From a virus (taxonomy: Duplodnaviria; Heunggongvirae; Uroviricota; Caudoviricetes), in the IMG/VR virus record IMGVR_UViG_3300028453_000031: a stretch of DNA of 18,658 nt. One strand, written 5' to 3'. Positions within the stretch are counted from its first letter, which is position 1; every line of letters begins with the position of its first letter. The notes beneath the pieces were generated by a model. That model was given only the letters and a program-made list of their open reading frames with translations, was not told the DNA's origin and did no database searches. The position numbers and the translations under genes were made by a program. Of the stretch, positions 4,718 to 18,232 are shown piece by piece.

Positions 4718-4909
4718 TTAAAGCCCTGCCGGGACTTCGTTATTATCCATGCGAATAACTTTATCTACCGGATAACAGTTACCGGGAATTTTCTGTTCAT
4801 CTGCGGCAGCCATGCATTCTTCCATTGAGTCACGTATATCAACAATAAGATCAAGTGGTTCGCCGGTATTAAGAAAAACTGTCAGAACGAGTGCGAATGC
4901 TGTATTCAT
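4718..4909 (-). CDS. Small hypothetical early protein (63 aa) with hydrophobic N-terminus
   Basis: MNTAFALVLTVFLNTGEPLDL...; start is coupled by an ATGA overlap to the stop of the upstream small gene. The ORF track's longer version (4718..4963) uses an upstream start I consider less likely. Confidence 0.5.
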   Translation of the reverse strand: MNTAFALVLTVFLNTGEPLDLIVDIRDSMEECMAAADEQKIPGNCYPVDKVIRMDNNEVPAGL

Positions 4910-5094
4910 TGCCAGTATCCTTTTTGCATCAGACGTAAACGGGCCAGCATTGAAACAATGCATATTTGATTTAATAACTCCCGTTCGTGTTTTCTCTTAT
5001 TAATGGCATCTTCAGTAAATGCAGGGTTACTGATACTGACACCAATTTCAAAACAACCTTCAGACGTATTAACGTTTGGTAATAACGTTTCCAT
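4906..5094 (-). CDS. Small hypothetical early protein (62 aa)
   Basis: ORF METLLPNVNTSEGCFEIG... with a GAGGA Shine-Dalgarno ~7 nt upstream of the ATG. Confidence 0.55.
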   Translation of the reverse strand: METLLPNVNTSEGCFEIGVSISNPAFTEDAINKRKHERELLNQICIVSMLARLRLMQKGYWQ

Positions 5095-5617: not shown

Positions 5618-5797
5618 GTGATCGCTGAATTAACGGCAGCAATGACGGCTATTCGTGAAACCGCTCAGATTGCAAAACTAATGAACGAGGCAAAAACTCA
5701 AGCTGAAGTAAATGCGGCTATTGGTGAACTGAACTCAAAGCTTGCATCTATTCAGCGCGAATGCGTGTCTCTCGTTGAGCTGGTGGGCACTTATTAA
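5618..5797 (+). CDS. Small coiled-coil-like ORF on the plus strand, ending at an in-frame TAA
   Basis: Frame encodes ...VIAELTAAMTAIRETAQIAKLMNEAKTQAEVNAAIGELNSKLASIQRECVSLVELVGTY*. Start is uncertain (GTG 5618 with weak AAGAG, or ATG 5645). The same frame stays open after the stop through 6133. Confidence 0.35.
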   Translation: MIAELTAAMTAIRETAQIAKLMNEAKTQAEVNAAIGELNSKLASIQRECVSLVELVGTY

Positions 5798-5917
5798 GAA
5801 ATAAATGCTTCTCTCAAAGCTAAAATTGCAGAATTTGAAAACTTTGAGGCTCAGACGGAAGGTTATATCCTTAACCAACTTGAGTCGGGAACTTTTGTGT
5901 ACTCGAAGGAGGTAACC

Positions 5918-6133
5918 GTGAACGGCGGCAGCATAATCATGCATCTTTGTCCAAAATGTTTTGGACAAAATATAGTATCGATACTTCAACCATTCCCGGT
6001 TAGAGAATATGAGTTTTTTCATAAAAGCAGGTGCCTATACTGTGAAAATCAGTTTATTATGAATAAAAATCCGGATTATGTATCGCCTCCATCTATTGAG
6101 AAGTTGGCCAGAAAACTGAACGGCAATCTGTAG
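5918..6133 (+). CDS. Small zinc-ribbon protein (CxxC...CxxC) on the plus strand
   Basis: Strong Shine-Dalgarno AAGGAGG at 5906-5912, 5 nt before GTG 5918. Product VNGGSIIMHLCPKCFGQN...RCLYCENQF... has two CxxC pairs. Confidence 0.5.
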   Translation: MNGGSIIMHLCPKCFGQNIVSILQPFPVREYEFFHKSRCLYCENQFIMNKNPDYVSPPSIEKLARKLNGNL

Positions 6134-6246
6134 ATTGTTACTGTTATGGATATCCAGATTGTTAAAGAGCATGCCGGATGCTTGCTTGTGTCCGGCGCGT
6201 GTGCACCAGTTCTCCCCGTGGAGGATTCCTTAACTACCAGACTTCA

Positions 6247-6480
6247 TTAGTTAGAGTTTCTTGCTAACCAGCGATGCGCGCCAGCTGCGGTTTTAAACGT
6301 TTTACTTTTGGTATACGTCATCGCGGTGAAGGTGCCGTCCTGGTTAGGGAACACACCGCATACCAGAGATTCGTTGTTACCAAGATTGAGCGTATCCATG
6401 TTGACCTCATTTCCCCTTAACGCCGGGGGAGCGGAACAAAAACCTGCTGCATAGTTATTAATGTTGAACCCTGCCGTCAT
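6247..6480 (-). CDS. Hypothetical protein, first gene of the leftward (pL-like) operon
   Basis: 77-aa ORF with GAGG ~9 nt upstream of the ATG, immediately downstream of the left operator pair. Not Arg-rich, so not obviously N-like. Confidence 0.5.
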   Translation of the reverse strand: MTAGFNINNYAAGFCSAPPALRGNEVNMDTLNLGNNESLVCGVFPNQDGTFTAMTYTKSKTFKTAAGAHRWLARNSN

Positions 6481-6585
6481 GTTCTTACGCCTCAGGCTGG
6501 CTACTTAACCCCTGACCACTGCCGGGTAACTCGAAGTATTGCCCTGCGTTCTGTGGGGCGGGGTGGGTTGGTATGAAAAGAAGGA

Positions 6586-6621
6586 TACCCATAGGTATTT
6601 AAAAAGTAAATACCCATGGGT
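6586..6621. promoter_or_regulatory. Left operator pair (OL-like): two copies of ATACCCAYRGGT
   Basis: ATACCCATAGGTAT at 6586-6599 and ATACCCATGGGTA at 6609-6621 (TACCCATGGGTA is a perfect palindrome). The same motif recurs on the other side of the repressor gene. Confidence 0.5.
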
Positions 6622-6666
6622 AACTTTTTTTACGGTGTCTTAACTGGTGACTGGTTGTTTGGTGAG

Positions 6667-7086
6667 CTATGATGCGTTTTGCGCTTTCTTTTTACGGATT
6701 TCTTCGTAGATCATATTGTAATACTGTTTTTTCTCTTCAAGAGTTTTTAATAAGTTATCCGCTTCACTTTCTGGCAGTTCGTCTAAGAGATCTAAAAAAA
6801 TACGTTGTCGTGGCGTTAGAACCCTTGTTTCATAACTGGAGGCTGTGTTCGTTGATGATGAAACGATACCATCCATCCATCCCCGGGGTAACCCAAAGGA
6901 CTCTTCGATAATCTCCACCATATCATCAGCGATCCGTTTTTTTCCCTTTTTCCCCTCTGGGTACAACATTCTTGATACATAAGAAGGCTCGCGCCCGATC
7001 TTTCTGGCCACGTTAACCGCTTTACCATCGCATTTCTCATCACGAATTTTGATGAGTTGCTGTCGTCTAAATTCATATTTGTCCAT
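6667..7086 (-). CDS. Prophage repressor, RacR-like, HTH, without a LexA-type peptidase domain
   Basis: 139-aa ORF divergent from the cro-like gene, with an HTH-like segment AVNVARKIGREPSYVSRMLY and no S24 peptidase motifs. No obvious Shine-Dalgarno, so possibly leaderless like lambda cI. Confidence 0.8.
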   Translation of the reverse strand: MDKYEFRRQQLIKIRDEKCDGKAVNVARKIGREPSYVSRMLYPEGKKGKKRIADDMVEIIEESFGLPRGWMDGIVSSSTNTASSYETRVLTPRQRIFLDLLDELPESEADNLLKTLEEKKQYYNMIYEEIRKKKAQNAS

Positions 7087-7122
7087 AGGTAAATAATAGA
7101 TGCGATTACTGCAAGGTAAACA

Positions 7123-7158
7123 ACCTGTGGGTATTGACTTTTGTTTACCTGCGGGTAT
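7123..7158. promoter_or_regulatory. Right operator pair (OR-like) in the divergent promoter region
   Basis: ACCTGTGGGTAT at 7123-7134 and ACCTGCGGGTAT at 7147-7158 are reverse complements of the ATACCCAYRGGT motif seen at 6586-6621, within direct repeats TTGTTTACCTG. Confidence 0.55.
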
Positions 7159-7186
7159 TCTTTGCTGTGTTTACTAAGGAGTAGCT

Positions 7187-7468
7187 ATGGAAGAATTAAG
7201 AATATTTCTCAATTCTCTTTCGTCAGATGAACAGCGTATGTTTGCATGCGAGTGCGGTACCAGCATCGGTTATCTAAGAAAGGCATTGAGTAAAGGTCAA
7301 GTGTTAGGGGCATCGTTATGTGTCCTTATTGAGCGAGCCAGTAATGGTGAAGTTACACGTCAGCAACTAAGGCCTTTTGATTGGATGAATATTTGGCCCG
7401 AGCTGGAAGATACCAAAACGTTAACACAACCACTTTCTAGGAGCTTGATTCATGAAAATCAAGCATGA
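7187..7468 (+). CDS. Cro/CI-type HTH regulator, YdaS-like
   Basis: 93-aa ORF with AAGGAG Shine-Dalgarno, divergent from the repressor. HTH-like CGTSIGYLRKALSKGQ. Position and size match Rac ydaS. Confidence 0.75.
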   Translation: MEELRIFLNSLSSDEQRMFACECGTSIGYLRKALSKGQVLGASLCVLIERASNGEVTRQQLRPFDWMNIWPELEDTKTLTQPLSRSLIHENQA

Positions 7469-7877
7469 ACACATCTGTATGGCGATGAATGCCTGGGCGC
7501 GTCCTGATGGCGAAAAAGTTCCAGTAGCTGCAATAACCCAGGCTTATTTTGAGTTGGGTATGACGTTTCCTGAACTGTATGACGACAGCCATCCGGAAGC
7601 CCTGGCTCGCAATACCCAGAAAATTTTCCGCTGGGTAGAGAAGGACACCCCTGATGCTGTTGAAAAAATTCAGGCGTTGTTACCGGCGATCGAAAAGGCG
7701 ATGCCGCCTTTGCTGGTGGCCCGTATGCGCAGTCACAGCTCTGAATATTACCGTGAGATCGTCGAACGGAGGGATCGACTGGTGAAGGATGTCGATGATT
7801 TTGTTGCGTCAGCGGTTGTTTTGTATGACCAGATGAATCGCGGCGGCCCGGCAGGGAATGCTGTGGTGATGCACTAA
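7452..7877 (+). CDS. YdaT-like protein
   Basis: 141-aa ORF overlapping the YdaS-like 3' end, AGGAGC before the ATG. Order and size match Rac ydaS-ydaT. Confidence 0.7.
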   Translation: MKIKHEHICMAMNAWARPDGEKVPVAAITQAYFELGMTFPELYDDSHPEALARNTQKIFRWVEKDTPDAVEKIQALLPAIEKAMPPLLVARMRSHSSEYYREIVERRDRLVKDVDDFVASAVVLYDQMNRGGPAGNAVVMH

Positions 7878-7899
7878 AAGCACGGTGTTCGGGGGTTTT

Positions 7900-8862
7900 A
7901 TGAGCAGCAAGCTTCATGGTCTTGTCTGGGAAGGGTGCGCCTTCACCGGCATGATCTTATCCAGGGTGGCAGTTATGGCCCGTCTTGCAGACTACAGCAA
8001 TGACGAGGGCGTGTCATGGCCTGCCATTGAAACTATCCGGCGTCAGATCGGTGCAAGAAGTGAATCTACCGTGAAATCTGCTATTGCAGAACTGGCGAAA
8101 GAGGGCTGGCTGACGAAGGAAGAGCGTAAGGTCGGTGGGCGTAACGTAAGCAATATCTATCGGCTTAATGTGGAAAAACTCGAAGCAGCTGCAGCTGCGG
8201 CCCGTGAGGCATATAAACCGAAAAGAAAAATTAGCCCGGCAAAAAATGACCCGTTAACAGTTGACCCGTCAAATATTGACCCCTCAACTGTTGACCCGTC
8301 AAATTTTGATGGATCAACTGTTGATAAAAAACTGCCGATTAGGGGGGCGATGATTGACCCCGATCCGTCAGTATTAAAACCTGATCCGTCAGATAAAAGA
8401 TCTTCTTGTCCGGACGTTTCGCAACCGGACCCGCAGACGGCTGAACAGGATTTTTTAACCCGACACCCTGACGCGGTTGTGTTCAGTGCGAAAAAACGCC
8501 AGTGGGGAAGTCAGGAAGATTTGGCGTGCGCACAGTGGATCTGGGGACGAATCGTGAGTCTTTACGAGCAGGCGGCCAGCGATGATGGCGAGATCACGAG
8601 ACCGAAAGAACCCAACTGGACAGCATGGGCCAATGATGTGCGCACAATGCGGATGCTGGATGGCAGAACTCACAGACAAATTTGTGAAATGTTTGGGCGT
8701 GTCCAGCGGGATTCGTTCTGGGTAAAAAACATCATGAGTCCGGCAAAACTCCGGGAAAAATGGGATGAACTGGTTATCCGCCTGGGGCGTTCGCCCGCGC
8801 AGCGTTGCGTGAATCACATTTCTGAACCGGACACTGAAATACCGCCGGGATTCAGGGGGTGA
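7900..8862 (+). CDS. Replication initiator (O-like / YdaU-like) with N-terminal winged helix
   Basis: N-terminal HTH region (ARLADYSNDEGVSWPAIETIRRQIGARSESTVKSAIAELAKEGWL); internal tandem iterons; immediately upstream of the DnaC-like gene. ATG 7900 preferred over the track's GTG 7885 (G-rich SD-like stretch upstream). Confidence 0.8.
   Translation: MSSKLHGLVWEGCAFTGMILSRVAVMARLADYSNDEGVSWPAIETIRRQIGARSESTVKSAIAELAKEGWLTKEERKVGGRNVSNIYRLNVEKLEAAAAAAREAYKPKRKISPAKNDPLTVDPSNIDPSTVDPSNFDGSTVDKKLPIRGAMIDPDPSVLKPDPSDKRSSCPDVSQPDPQTAEQDFLTRHPDAVVFSAKKRQWGSQEDLACAQWIWGRIVSLYEQAASDDGEITRPKEPNWTAWANDVRTMRMLDGRTHRQICEMFGRVQRDSFWVKNIMSPAKLREKWDELVIRLGRSPAQRCVNHISEPDTEIPPGFRG
8246..8320. repeat. Iterons (candidate ori): five tandem ~15-bp repeats inside the initiator gene
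   Basis: Units TGACCCGTTAACAGT / TGACCCGTCAAATAT / TGACCCCTCAACTGT / TGACCCGTCAAATTT / TGATGGATCAACTGT with 15-bp period, encoding DPLTVDPSNIDPSTVDPSNFDGSTVD. This is the lambda O-type arrangement. Confidence 0.65.
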
Positions 8863-12422: not shown

Positions 12423-12656
12423 ATATGGGAATTCCCATATTGGGCAAAAACGGTTTGCTGTAAAGCGAGAGTTAAGTAGAATTGCTGCGGGTGCTTGAGG
12501 CTGTCTGCCTCGGGCATGCCGCCGTAAGGCAGACAGAGAAAAGCCCCAGTTAACATAACGCGTCCTGCAAGACGCTTAACATTAATCTGAGGCCCAATCT
12601 ATGTCTCACAAATGTAGGTTAGCCTCTTACGTGCCGAAGGCAAGGAGAAGCAGGCT
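12423..12656 (+). promoter_or_regulatory. hok mRNA leader region with strong secondary structure; expected location of the antisense (sok-like) RNA
   Basis: 18-bp perfect palindrome ATATGGGAATTCCCATAT (12423-12440); 10-bp perfect stem CTGTCTGCCT / AGGCAGACAG (12501-12510 and 12527-12536); short leader ORF 12601-12660 ending in ATGA at the hok start. Confidence 0.45.
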
Positions 12657-12812
12657 ATGAAGCAGCAAAAGGCGACGTTAATCGCCCTGATCGTCATCTG
12701 TTTAACCGTCATAGTGACGGCACTGGTAACGAGGAAAGACCTCTGCGAGGTACGAATCCGAACCGGCCAGACGGAGGTCGCTGTTTTCACAGTCTACGAA
12801 CCTGAGGAGTAA
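12657..12812 (+). CDS. hok: Hok/Gef family type I toxin
   Basis: 51-aa product MKQQKATLIALIVICLTVIVTALVTRKDLCEVRIRTGQTEVAVFTVYEPEE matches the Hok family pattern (TM helix then TRK.LCE.R.R.G..EVA....YE). AAGGAG 9 nt upstream. Confidence 0.85.
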   Translation: MKQQKATLIALIVICLTVIVTALVTRKDLCEVRIRTGQTEVAVFTVYEPEE

Positions 12813-15944: not shown

Positions 15945-17003
15945 ATGTTTAATACTGTAAAAATATCCAGTTGTGAGTTGATCAACGCTGACTGCCTGGA
16001 ATTTATCCGGTCGTTACCCGAAAATTCTGTTGACCTGATAGTCACGGACCCGCCGTCCTTTAAAGTGAAGCCTGAGGGCTGGGATAACCAGTGGAAGGGC
16101 GACGATGATTACCTGAAATGGCTGGACCAGTGTCTGGCGCAGTTCTGGCGGGTGCTGAAACCTGCCGGAAGTCTTTACCTGTTCTGTGGCCATCGCCTGG
16201 CATCTGACATTGAAATCATGATGCGAGAACGCTTCAGTGTGCTGAACCATATTATCTGGGCGAAGCCGTCCGGACGCTGGAACGGGTGCAACAAGGAAAG
16301 CCTGAGGGCGTATTTCCCCGCCACAGAGCGCATTCTGTTCGCGGAACATTATCAGGGGCCGTATCGTCCGAAAGATGCCGGGTATGAGGCGAAGGGCAGG
16401 GCACTGAAACAGCATGTGATGACACCGCTGATTGCTTACTTTCGTGATGCGCGTGCTGCCCTGGGGATAACGGCAAAACAGATTGCTGATGCCACAGGAA
16501 AGAAAAACATGGTGTCGCACTGGTTCAGTGCCAGTCAGTGGCAGTTACCGAACGAAAGCGATTATCTGAAATTACAGGTGCTGTTTGCCCGGGTGGCAGA
16601 AGAGAAGCATCAGCGGGGTGAACTGGAAAAGCCCCACCACCAGCTGCTGGAGACGTATACTTCACTGAACCGGCAGTATGCGGAACTGCAGAGTGAATAT
16701 AAGCATCTGCGGCGGTATTTTGGCGTGACGGCGCAGATGCCGTACACGGATGTGTGGACGCATAAACCGGTGCAGTACTATCCCGGGAAACATCCGTGCG
16801 AAAAACCGGCAGAAATGCTGCAGCAGATAATCAGCGCGAGCAGTCGTCCGGGTGACCTGGTTGCAGATTTTTTCATGGGGTCGGGTTCGACAGTCAAAGC
16901 CGCGATGGCGCTGGGGCGGCGTGCAACTGGCGTTGAGCTGGAGACTGAACGTTTTGAGCAGACGGTCAGAGAAGTTCAGGATTTAGTCAGTCAGAACGGA
17001 TGA
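15945..17003 (+). CDS. Orphan DNA methyltransferase, beta-class amino-MTase (N6-adenine or N4-cytosine)
   Basis: Motif IV-like LIVTDPPSF near the N-terminus and motif I FFMGSGST near the C-terminus (beta-class order). No adjacent restriction endonuclease gene. Confidence 0.85.
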   Translation: MFNTVKISSCELINADCLEFIRSLPENSVDLIVTDPPSFKVKPEGWDNQWKGDDDYLKWLDQCLAQFWRVLKPAGSLYLFCGHRLASDIEIMMRERFSVLNHIIWAKPSGRWNGCNKESLRAYFPATERILFAEHYQGPYRPKDAGYEAKGRALKQHVMTPLIAYFRDARAALGITAKQIADATGKKNMVSHWFSASQWQLPNESDYLKLQVLFARVAEEKHQRGELEKPHHQLLETYTSLNRQYAELQSEYKHLRRYFGVTAQMPYTDVWTHKPVQYYPGKHPCEKPAEMLQQIISASSRPGDLVADFFMGSGSTVKAAMALGRRATGVELETERFEQTVREVQDLVSQNG

Positions 17004-17043: not shown

Positions 17044-17119
17044 GGCCCTTTAGCTCAGTGGTGAGAGCGAGCGACTCATAATCGCCAGGTCGCTGGTTCA
17101 AATCCAGCAAGGGCCACCA
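17044..17119 (+). tRNA. ileZ: tRNA-Ile (anticodon CAU, lysidine type), ileX/ileZ-like
   Basis: 76 nt, 7-bp acceptor stem GGCCCTT/AAGGGCC, anticodon loop CTCATAA, T-loop TTCAAAT, 3' CCA. Near-identical to E. coli tRNA-Ile2 as I recall it. Confidence 0.85.
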
Positions 17120-17128
17120 TATCACATA

Positions 17129-17205
17129 CCGCCATTAGCTCATCGGGATAGAGCGCCAGCCTTCGAAGCTGGCTGCGCGGGGTTCGAGTCCTCGATGGCG
17201 GTCCA
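17129..17205 (+). tRNA. tRNA-Arg (anticodon UCG)
   Basis: 77 nt, acceptor CCGCCAT/ATGGCGG, D-arm GCTC/GAGC, anticodon stem CCAGC/GCTGG with loop CTTCGAA, T-arm CGGGG-TTCGAGT-CCTCG, 3' CCA. Resembles the rare-codon Arg tRNA (argO-like) of Stx phages. Confidence 0.8.
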
Positions 17206-17942: not shown

Positions 17943-18202
17943 GATTTTGGGGCGCTGGAAAGATATTGTGCTGTGAAGTGTTAAATCCCTCACAATTCAG
18001 TAAGTTGACAGTTGCCTGTCAGACTGAGCATTTGTTAAAAAAATTTCGCATGGTGAATCCCCCTGTGCGGAGGGGCGACTGGTGAACGGTATGATCTCTT
18101 TGATGATCGTAAGCGAGAATACGCGGGTTTGGTGTCACCGGGCTGAACTCACCGGGAGGCACCCGGCACCATGCTCATGGTGATACAGAAATGCGGCTTC
18201 AG

Positions 18203-18228
18203 CCCCTCTCCGGAGGGGCTTTCTTATG
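18203..18228 (+). terminator. Rho-independent terminator (plus strand)
   Basis: GCCCCTC-TCCG-GAGGGGC perfect 7-bp stem followed by TTTCTTAT. Confidence 0.5.
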
Positions 18229-18232
18229 GACA

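Follow-up and report, generated by a model that had tools for sequence, protein, structure and literature searches.

A short repressor of apparently mosaic origin in the probable lambda-type immunity switch of an Escherichia coli prophage

The stretch of viral DNA analysed here, the 18,658 nucleotides of IMG/VR record IMGVR_UViG_3300028453_000031 (Caudoviricetes), is called the window throughout, and our subject is its regulatory region at positions 6586-7877, where a leftward gene for a short repressor stands back to back with two rightward genes. The window belongs to a lambdoid prophage of Escherichia coli, and E. coli M18 (NZ_CP010219) is 99.8% identical to it over the region. We consider it probable that 6586-7877 holds the lysis-lysogeny immunity switch of a lambdoid prophage that seems to be complete, and that it follows the plan of lambda, with counterparts of CI, Cro and CII. 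As a kind of switch it is ordinary and thoroughly known, and its mechanism is not new. What is new is that a common E. coli 'hypothetical protein' finds its place in a specific CI family, its operator defined and its geometry of three plus two sites conserved, together with the observation of a specificity cassette coupled to interchangeable induction tails. A preliminary description of the window, made from its letters alone, had proposed a RacR-type switch, possibly doubling as an addiction module. Three open reading frames lie within 6586-7877, one of 139 amino acids leftward and two rightward, of 93 and 141 amino acids, the second of which overlaps the first:

6667..7086, minus strand: repressor gene (CI analogue), 139 amino acids, phrog_5736
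6868..7086, minus strand: N-terminal DNA-binding domain of the repressor, residues 1-73, with a helix-turn-helix at residues 23-40; no Pfam model matches
6670..6825, minus strand: C-terminal helical hairpin of the repressor, residues 88-139; DicA and the CI protein of phage Tritos have homologous tails
7187..7468, plus strand: Cro analogue (YdaS-like), 93 amino acids, phrog_35 at 4.8e-23
7452..7877, plus strand: YdaT (CII analogue), 141 amino acids
7445..7462: YdaT box, TTGATTCATGAAAATCAA, an exact match that spans the ydaT start codon (7452)

Allowing one mismatch, the motif ATACCCAYRGGT has six matches, which correspond to four sites, two of the palindromes being matched on both strands (6585-6596, 6610-6621, and 7123-7134 and 7147-7158 on the minus strand). 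The expectation from 200 shuffles was 0.21 matches, and none of the 200 reached six. The four-copy motif of the preliminary description is thus present well beyond chance, and its arrangement was also read correctly, with one operator pair before the leftward operon (6585-6623) and the other operators in the divergent promoter region (7106-7158). The count of four was too low for a conserved design of three plus two sites, and the start coordinate of 6586 was one base off, the first site beginning at 6585. The actual unit is a 14-bp palindrome, WTACC-N4-GGTAW, which is exact at 6585-6598, 6610-6623 and 7145-7158. The fourth copy, ATACCCGCAGGT, has one mismatch against the earlier consensus; the site at 7121-7134 has a degenerate outer arm; and a fifth, weaker site with one mismatch, TTACTGCAAGGTAA, lies at 7106-7119. 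All five sites retain the invariant arms, whereas the central N4 is free to vary and differs even between the window and M18. The layout is lambda-like, with three sites at the right operator (OR) and two at the left operator (OL):

6585..6598: OL1 operator, ATACCCATAGGTAT; the 14-bp palindrome is near-perfect, overlapping both spacer and -10 element of the candidate PL promoter
6610..6623: OL2 operator, ATACCCATGGGTAA, 25 bp centre to centre from OL1 and abutting the -35 element of the candidate PL promoter
7106..7119: OR3 operator, weak, TTACTGCAAGGTAA, with one core mismatch, covering the -35 element and spacer of PRM
7121..7134: OR2 operator, ATACCCACAGGTTG on the minus strand, outer arm degenerate, between the -35 elements of PRM and PR
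7145..7158: OR1 operator, TTACCTGCGGGTAT, covering the spacer and -10 element of PR

When the search across the prophage that the preliminary description had suggested was run on the M18 element with its flanks (~62 kb), the motif proved to be confined to the OL and OR clusters. Six operator strings looked for in the open-access literature returned unrelated primer sequences only.

A consensus scan of 6100-7950 for sigma-70-like promoters returned two only, the divergent PR and PRM, and both are interleaved with the operators. A candidate PL was read by hand at the left pair, where the scan also marked a terminator-like site:

7134..7161, plus strand: PR-like promoter (cro-ydaT-O-P...), TTGACT (7134-7139), 16-nt spacer, TATTCT (7156-7161), from the consensus scan
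7093..7120, minus strand: PRM-like promoter of the repressor gene, TTTACC (7120-7115), 16-nt spacer, TATTAT (7098-7093), from the consensus scan
6582..6610, minus strand: candidate PL promoter of the leftward early operon (DUF1391 ... dicB ... exonuclease, xis, int), hand-read, with -35 TTTACT (6610 to 6605), 17-nt spacer and -10 TATCCT (6587 to 6582)
6586..6622, minus strand: OL hairpin, formed by the two OL palindromes with a 16-bp stem and followed by TCCTTCTTTT; terminator-like site in the scan

OR2 touches the -35 element of PR and lies directly upstream of that of PRM, at 24 bp centre to centre from OR1, and the layout of PL is that of PR with one indel. The -10 element of PRM ends 6 nt before the repressor ATG and no Shine-Dalgarno sequence is present. 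Because this layout recurs in relatives, where in 30 of 54 loci the repressor ATG follows 6-8 nt after the end of a -10-like hexamer and a Shine-Dalgarno-like sequence is seen in only eight, the repressor mRNA is predicted to be leaderless, and likely is.

The 54 loci are the window, phage mEp043 and 52 further loci from a scan of one genome per species with an alignment of the N-terminal domain; the latter come from Enterobacterales, Aeromonas, Neisseria, Burkholderiales and Xanthomonadales, and all were oriented on the repressor start. In 45 of the 54, the TACC-N4-GGTA core is exact at about -74 from that start. It recurs with up to two mismatches at about -49 (44/54), where the outer arm is systematically degenerate, and with up to one mismatch at about -34 (again 44/54), at a background frequency of ~5e-4 per position. 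The corresponding offsets in the window are -72, -48 and -33. Downstream of the repressor, an OL pair 25-26 bp apart is found in 38 of the 54 loci, with TTGAC between the sites and a -10 element whose start falls within the final bases of the second. A divergent gene homologous to the window Cro accompanies 43 of 53 loci, and YdaT stands alongside the cassette in the window only. Given the Cro homologue in so many loci and YdaT in one, the N-terminal domain, the operators and Cro appear to travel as one unit, with the repressor tail and the CII-type gene as exchangeable parts.

These comparisons also bear on another reading of the left pair, namely that 6585-6623 is mainly the intrinsic terminator of the repressor transcript and that its likeness to the OR sites is incidental to an inverted repeat. 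On the repressor strand, the 16-pair hairpin followed by TCCTTCTTTT begins 44 nt after the stop codon and folds at -25.1 kcal/mol (z = -4.4), as a terminator might. However, two palindromic sites of the same sequence are inherently complementary. The pair is kept at its 25-26 bp spacing in the 38 loci, with the -35-like TTGAC in the hairpin loop and the -10 after the second site, whereas the downstream T-run is missing from most relatives; what is conserved there is the promoter. In the window, moreover, the pair sits exactly at the junction with a shared leftward-operon leader. We therefore regard a terminator as quite unlikely to be the main role of the pair, although the OL hairpin may double as a terminator of the PRM transcript.

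The protein predicted to act at these operators is a short one. The preliminary description held that the repressor lacks an autocleavage domain, and this is borne out: at 139 amino acids it has no S24/LexA-like domain (no PF00717 match), and Pfam searches with the whole protein and with each half, at expectation values (E) up to 10, returned no family. Residues 1-73 are 65-84% identical to the N-termini of S24-bearing repressors of 220-240 amino acids from Salmonella, Edwardsiella, Klebsiella, Pantoea and others. Among cultured phages, mEp043 comes closest; its 228-residue cI is 65% identical over residues 1-86 of the window repressor and carries an identical recognition-helix stretch, REPSYVSRMLYPEGK.GKKRIADDM. 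Within the predicted recognition helix, S35, Y36, V37, R39 and M40 are invariant in a nine-sequence alignment of the N-terminal domain. Residues 88-139 belong elsewhere. They are 33% identical to the tail of DicA from Qin (E 1e-7; hhalign probability 80%), with a partial match to NCBIfam NF007257, and the last ~50 residues are ~78% identical, by hand reading, to those of the Tritos CI, itself a 139-residue protein, which is 39% identical over 119 aligned residues. At their N-termini, DicA and Tritos CI have Pfam HTH_3 domains. The hairpin is presumed to mediate dimerisation or oligomerisation. A homologue search with the C-terminal 56 amino acids alone returned fragments of the same protein only.

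An AlphaFold (AF2) model of the repressor has a mean pLDDT of 86. Its helix-turn-helix domain is helical (helices 3-18, 23-30, 34-40 and 54-63), residues 77-87 form a disordered linker, and a helical hairpin (92-103 and 106-138) follows. The best match among solved structures, a weak one found with Foldseek, is the Rep repressor of the Salmonella phage SPC32H in the Rep-Ant complex (5d50, E 8e-4), and the other Foldseek matches are generic XRE-type helix-turn-helix proteins; a sequence search of solved structures gave nothing meaningful. At the DNA level, four stretches are shared with other elements:

6254-6575: shared with Rac, Qin and Tritos (leftward-operon leader and DUF1391)
6701-6783: shared with the tail of the Tritos CI gene
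6872-6990: shared with the N-terminal domain of mEp043 cI
7440-7866: shared with Tritos ydaT

Because the joints of this DNA-level mosaic fall there, the immunity cassette proper can be placed at ~6576-7439. By the same comparisons, the repressor reads as a mosaic, with a DNA-binding domain of the mEp043-cI type and a tail of the DicA/Tritos type.

Kinship with RacR, as implied by the preliminary description, was looked for and rejected: the best BLASTP match has an E value of 2.3 over 7 residues, and hhalign of a 30-sequence family profile against RacR gives a probability of 0.1%. RacR and DicA are also unrelated to one another by BLASTP. The label 'RacR-type' holds only loosely, for membership of a short, non-cleavable class (PMC3121763).

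How widely the N-terminal domain has been combined with other tails can be gauged from an exhaustive search of a representative library of 1.84 billion proteins, in which it has 624 representatives of 50%-identity clusters and, as noted, no Pfam model. Among the best 150 of these 624, the proteins range from ~70 to 400 amino acids in length. The tails joined to it include at least four S24 subtypes and several unrelated short ones (for example in the Paraburkholderia loci L027 and L028, Herbaspirillum L038 and Ralstonia L042). Among the relatives that share this DNA-binding domain, many and indeed most have an S24 domain, and its absence from the window repressor is informative for that reason. 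It is possible, and we put it forward tentatively, that the N-terminal domain, the three plus two operators and Cro form an ancient, uncatalogued 'specificity cassette' of gamma- and betaproteobacterial prophages, repeatedly recombined at the linker with interchangeable C-terminal 'induction modules'. If this were true, the prophage would represent an SOS-blind form of the mEp043 immunity type, conferring immunity to SOS-inducible phages of the same specificity and itself uninducible by DNA damage.

The two rightward genes were said in the preliminary description to resemble ydaS and ydaT of Rac, and this is well supported for the second and less so for the first. The 141-residue protein scores 39.5 bits against Pfam PF06254 (cut-off 21), matches YdaT of CP-933P (PDB 8bt1) with an E value of 1e-86 at ~95% identity by reading of the alignment, and shares 31% identity with Rac YdaT. 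A high-affinity YdaT site, TTGATT-N6-AATCAA, has been defined by footprinting (PMC9986795); in the window, the ydaT ATG lies inside the spacer of the box, as it also does in Rac (PMC11879457). The 93-residue protein, by comparison, reaches 25.8 bits against Pfam YdaS_toxin PF15943, below the cut-off of 30, and resembles Rac YdaS over 28 amino acids only, though RefSeq sometimes places it in the 'YdaS family'. It is 73% identical to mEp043 Cro and matches PDB 8c7k and 8co2 ('antirepressor protein Cro') at an E value of 1e-10. By homology, it is clearly of the Cro type.

From the sites, promoters and homologies, we infer that the switch would work as follows. The repressor would bind the WTACC-N4-GGTAW palindromes as an oligomer, possibly with cooperativity, its DicA-type hairpin joining the subunits. 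Occupation of OR1 and OR2 would turn PR off and so silence cro, ydaT, the replication genes and the downstream Q gene. Sitting directly upstream of the weak -35 element of PRM, repressor at OR2 may activate this promoter at low repressor levels; at high levels, OR3, which lies over PRM, would allow self-repression, and shut-off by Cro would also act there. The repressor mRNA would start at the ATG itself, as do those of lambda cI and PaaR2. At the left, OL1 and OL2 (6585-6623) would occlude PL and keep the leftward operon silent, including dicB, the recombination exonuclease, xis and int. Cro would bind the same operators in the opposite order, and YdaT, bound to its box at 7445-7462, would drive a leftward establishment promoter in the manner of CII. 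Induction could come about through an antirepressor or by a stochastic flip of a bistable switch; RecA-stimulated self-cleavage cannot serve, because the repressor has no S24 domain.

Some points weigh against this reading. OR2 and OR3 are just 15 bp apart centre to centre, as against 23 bp in lambda, and the occupancy rules of lambda may not transfer. The PL hexamers of the window are weak, agreeing with the consensus at 8 of 12 positions and falling under the scan threshold; PL-equivalent hexamers in the same register are stronger in relatives, with TTGAC.. between the sites and then TATATT or TAATAT. An establishment promoter was not located in the window: a hand-read candidate, TTGATT (7462 to 7457), 17 nt and TAGAAA (7439 to 7434), is not claimed, as it conflicts with the published box downstream of PRE933P. 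Finally, YdaT of CP-933P is without effect on PRM, PR and PL, and what it does overall is less firmly established than for CII.

For induction, analogy offers a lead. In the Gifsy/DicA/RacR class of short repressors, inactivation is brought about by antirepressors under LexA control (Lemire et al., PMC3121763). Since both this class and the best structural match, 5d50, are antirepressor-controlled, an antirepressor route is a reasonable guess for the window repressor as well. The suggestion of the preliminary description that induction depends on an antirepressor or another route therefore stays plausible, even though no canonical LexA box (CTGT-N8-ACAG) is present in the window and no annotated antirepressor was found in the whole M18 prophage, a search that small or trans-acting antirepressors would lie outside. 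A LexA-box-like sequence, TACTGTAAAAATATCCAGTT, with 16 of 20 consensus matches and the form CTG-N10-CAG, does occur at 15953-15972, 8 nt inside the start of a frame for a 352-residue DNA methyltransferase (15945-17003) downstream of the Q antiterminator gene. No candidate antirepressor adjoins it; the methyltransferase gene could be under SOS control.

Whether the region might serve as an addiction module is a separate question. On the RacR model, the repressor would mainly silence toxic ydaS and ydaT, and its loss would be lethal. The gene order is that of Rac, where racR is indispensable and YdaS and YdaT are each toxic when expressed ectopically (PMC5700373, PMC5700377), with YdaT causing filamentation through rcsA (PMC11879457), and the Pfam family names speak of toxins. 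The repressor, however, is unrelated to RacR, and the ~95% identical YdaT of CP-933P is non-toxic, YdaS and YdaT acting there as Cro and CII analogues (PMC8630535, PMC5917428). The addictiveness of CP-933P comes from paaA2-parE2 (PMC8630535), and no such genes follow the window repressor, whose frame stops at 6667 while OL begins at 6623. Neither the open reading frames nor Pfam revealed a toxin-antitoxin gene anywhere within 6586-7877. Derepression would very probably be harmful all the same, but its simplest cause would be dicB in the PL operon together with the lytic programme, replication and lysis included, of an apparently intact prophage, and not toxicity of YdaS or YdaT. We hold the addiction module of the preliminary description to be very unlikely. 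A decayed, non-functional remnant in a cryptic prophage is more improbable still: defective lambdoid prophages are common in E. coli, the hexamers of PL are weak beside those of relatives and a neighbouring gene has an internal stop, but the three regulator frames are intact, the cassette is conserved at 95-99% in 822 genomes, the five sites keep their invariant arms, and the full set of replication, lysis and morphogenesis genes is present. The M18 element, which lies between potC and potB, is lambda-like and apparently intact; it has int, xis, a RecE-like exonuclease gene, dicB, hokD, rusA and Q, along with genes for replication, lysis, head and tail.

The same prophage does have a genuine addiction-type element, apart from the immunity region. 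A hok/sok-type locus occupies 12489-12812, with a sok antitoxin RNA at 12489-12662 (Rfam, 108.9 bits) and the hokD frame at 12657-12812, placed by its offset from the M18 annotation.

The 864-bp immunity cassette occurs in 822 of 5426 complete E. coli genomes (~15%), mostly at 95-99% identity, and RefSeq labels its repressor 'hypothetical protein'. The long, mEp043-type form of the repressor was found in 52 complete E. coli genomes, which makes the short form ~16 times commoner (822 vs 52); should the cassette proposal hold, SOS-blindness could help to explain this difference. A map of function, operators and promoters improves the annotation of prophages in ~15% of complete E. coli genomes, Shiga-toxin-producing strains included, and offers a testable handle on the inducibility of these prophages. 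That one DNA-binding domain, with its operators, is combined with an SOS-cleavable tail in some cases and a non-cleavable one in others amounts to a natural experiment, in which the mode of induction evolves independently of immunity specificity. The results also counter the persistent label 'toxin YdaS/YdaT' at this locus.

Several observations concern the neighbourhood of the switch. In the leftward operon, dicB, which encodes a cell-division inhibitor, lies at 4906-5094 on the minus strand, and a search at the gathering thresholds of Rfam found no DicF small RNA, in contrast to Qin and phage Tritos. A plus-strand gene at 5618-6133, flanked by dicB and the DUF1391 gene, occupies the position that sieB has in Rac; RefSeq treats it as a pseudogene with an internal stop, and its last open reading frame (5897-6133) shows apparent paired Cys-x-x-Cys motifs on hand reading and no Pfam match. 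The untranslated interval between OL and the DUF1391 gene (6412-6575) is 87% identical to the racR-ydaG interval of Rac and 92% identical to phage Tritos, and this conserved leftward-operon leader, common to otherwise different immunity types, may carry a regulatory element. To the right, the O-like replication initiator gene (7885-8862) contains at 8226-8325 a series of TTGACCCGTCAA-like repeats with a 15-bp period and nested inverted symmetry, probably origin iterons comparable to those of the lambda ori. At the far end of the window, two tRNA genes (Ile and Lys in the M18 annotation) directly follow the methyltransferase gene, and downstream of them is a full-length match to the small RNA STnc100 (172 bits); 17044-17202 and 18019-18231 are the coordinates given jointly for the tRNA genes and STnc100.

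Set beside known systems, the switch shares parts with several. Rac has the same gene order and orientation, with a repressor that lacks S24 and diverges from ydaS-ydaT; its YdaT box and first ydaT codons are 97% identical to the window over 30 bp, and its DUF1391 region, at the left, is 84-87% identical. What is shared with Rac is context and not repressor ancestry, and host-directed toxicity of YdaT via rcsA is known for the Rac type and not for that of CP-933P.

DicA of Qin and the CI of Tritos, like the window repressor, are short, have no S24 domain and stand upstream of a leftward operon running from DUF1391 to dicB. Their HTH_3 N-terminal domains are unrelated in sequence to that of the window, and their operators should differ from those described here for that reason. 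In its size (within ~135-150 amino acids), its freedom from a cleavage motif and its DicA-homologous tail, the window repressor conforms to the DicA/Gifsy-type short repressors.

For CP-933P of E. coli O157:H7, experiments have shown a bistable switch in which PaaR2 behaves as an analogue of CI, YdaS of Cro and YdaT of CII (PMC8630535). The two prophages have in common a short, non-cleavable repressor (PaaR2 was compared by description only), a divergent Cro-like YdaS followed by YdaT, and both OR and OL. Their YdaT proteins share ~95% identity, and their TTGATT-N6-AATCAA boxes are the same. A leaderless repressor mRNA has been demonstrated in CP-933P (PMC8630535), whereas in the window it is predicted. 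The CP-933P operators are 18-bp repeats with the consensus GTTTAGTAA, unlike the 14-bp sites of the window, and since the operators differ, the two prophages should be heteroimmune, with the YdaT module alone in common. The CP-933P repressor gene also heads a paaR2-paaA2-parE2 toxin-antitoxin operon, while that of the window is monocistronic.

Phage mEp043 (PV340537, JQ182734) is closest in its immunity region. Like the window, it has three OR sites at the same offsets (TTACCTGTAGGTAA, ATACCCATAGGTTA and TTACCGGCAGGTAA) and an OL pair; its CI DNA-binding domain (65%) and Cro (73%) are homologous and its operator consensus is the same, so that by sequence the window would belong to the mEp043-type immunity group. 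No analysis of mEp043 operators or immunity, and no description of these operators or of the N-terminal domain, was found in the open-access literature. The differences lie in the exchangeable parts: the 228-residue mEp043 cI has an S24 peptidase domain and is presumably SOS-cleavable, whereas the window repressor has a 50-residue DicA-type tail instead, and mEp043 carries a gene annotated cII where the window has YdaT.

Lambda itself differs in that its proteins show no sequence similarity to those of the window, that its sites are 17 bp and not 14 bp long, that only two OL sites are recognised in the window, and that the RecA-responsive S24 autocleavage domain of lambdoid switches is absent from the window repressor. 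The plan is nonetheless the same. As in lambda, divergent PRM and PR promoters are served by three operators, OR2 is next to the -35 element of PRM, OL is distant and the repressor mRNA is leaderless, as far as can be predicted for the window. Judged from its sequence, the locus has what otherwise marks a lambdoid switch: a repressor gene divergent from cro, multiple operators over back-to-back promoters and a second set of operators at OL, in a geometry that recurs in ~45 of the 54 loci.

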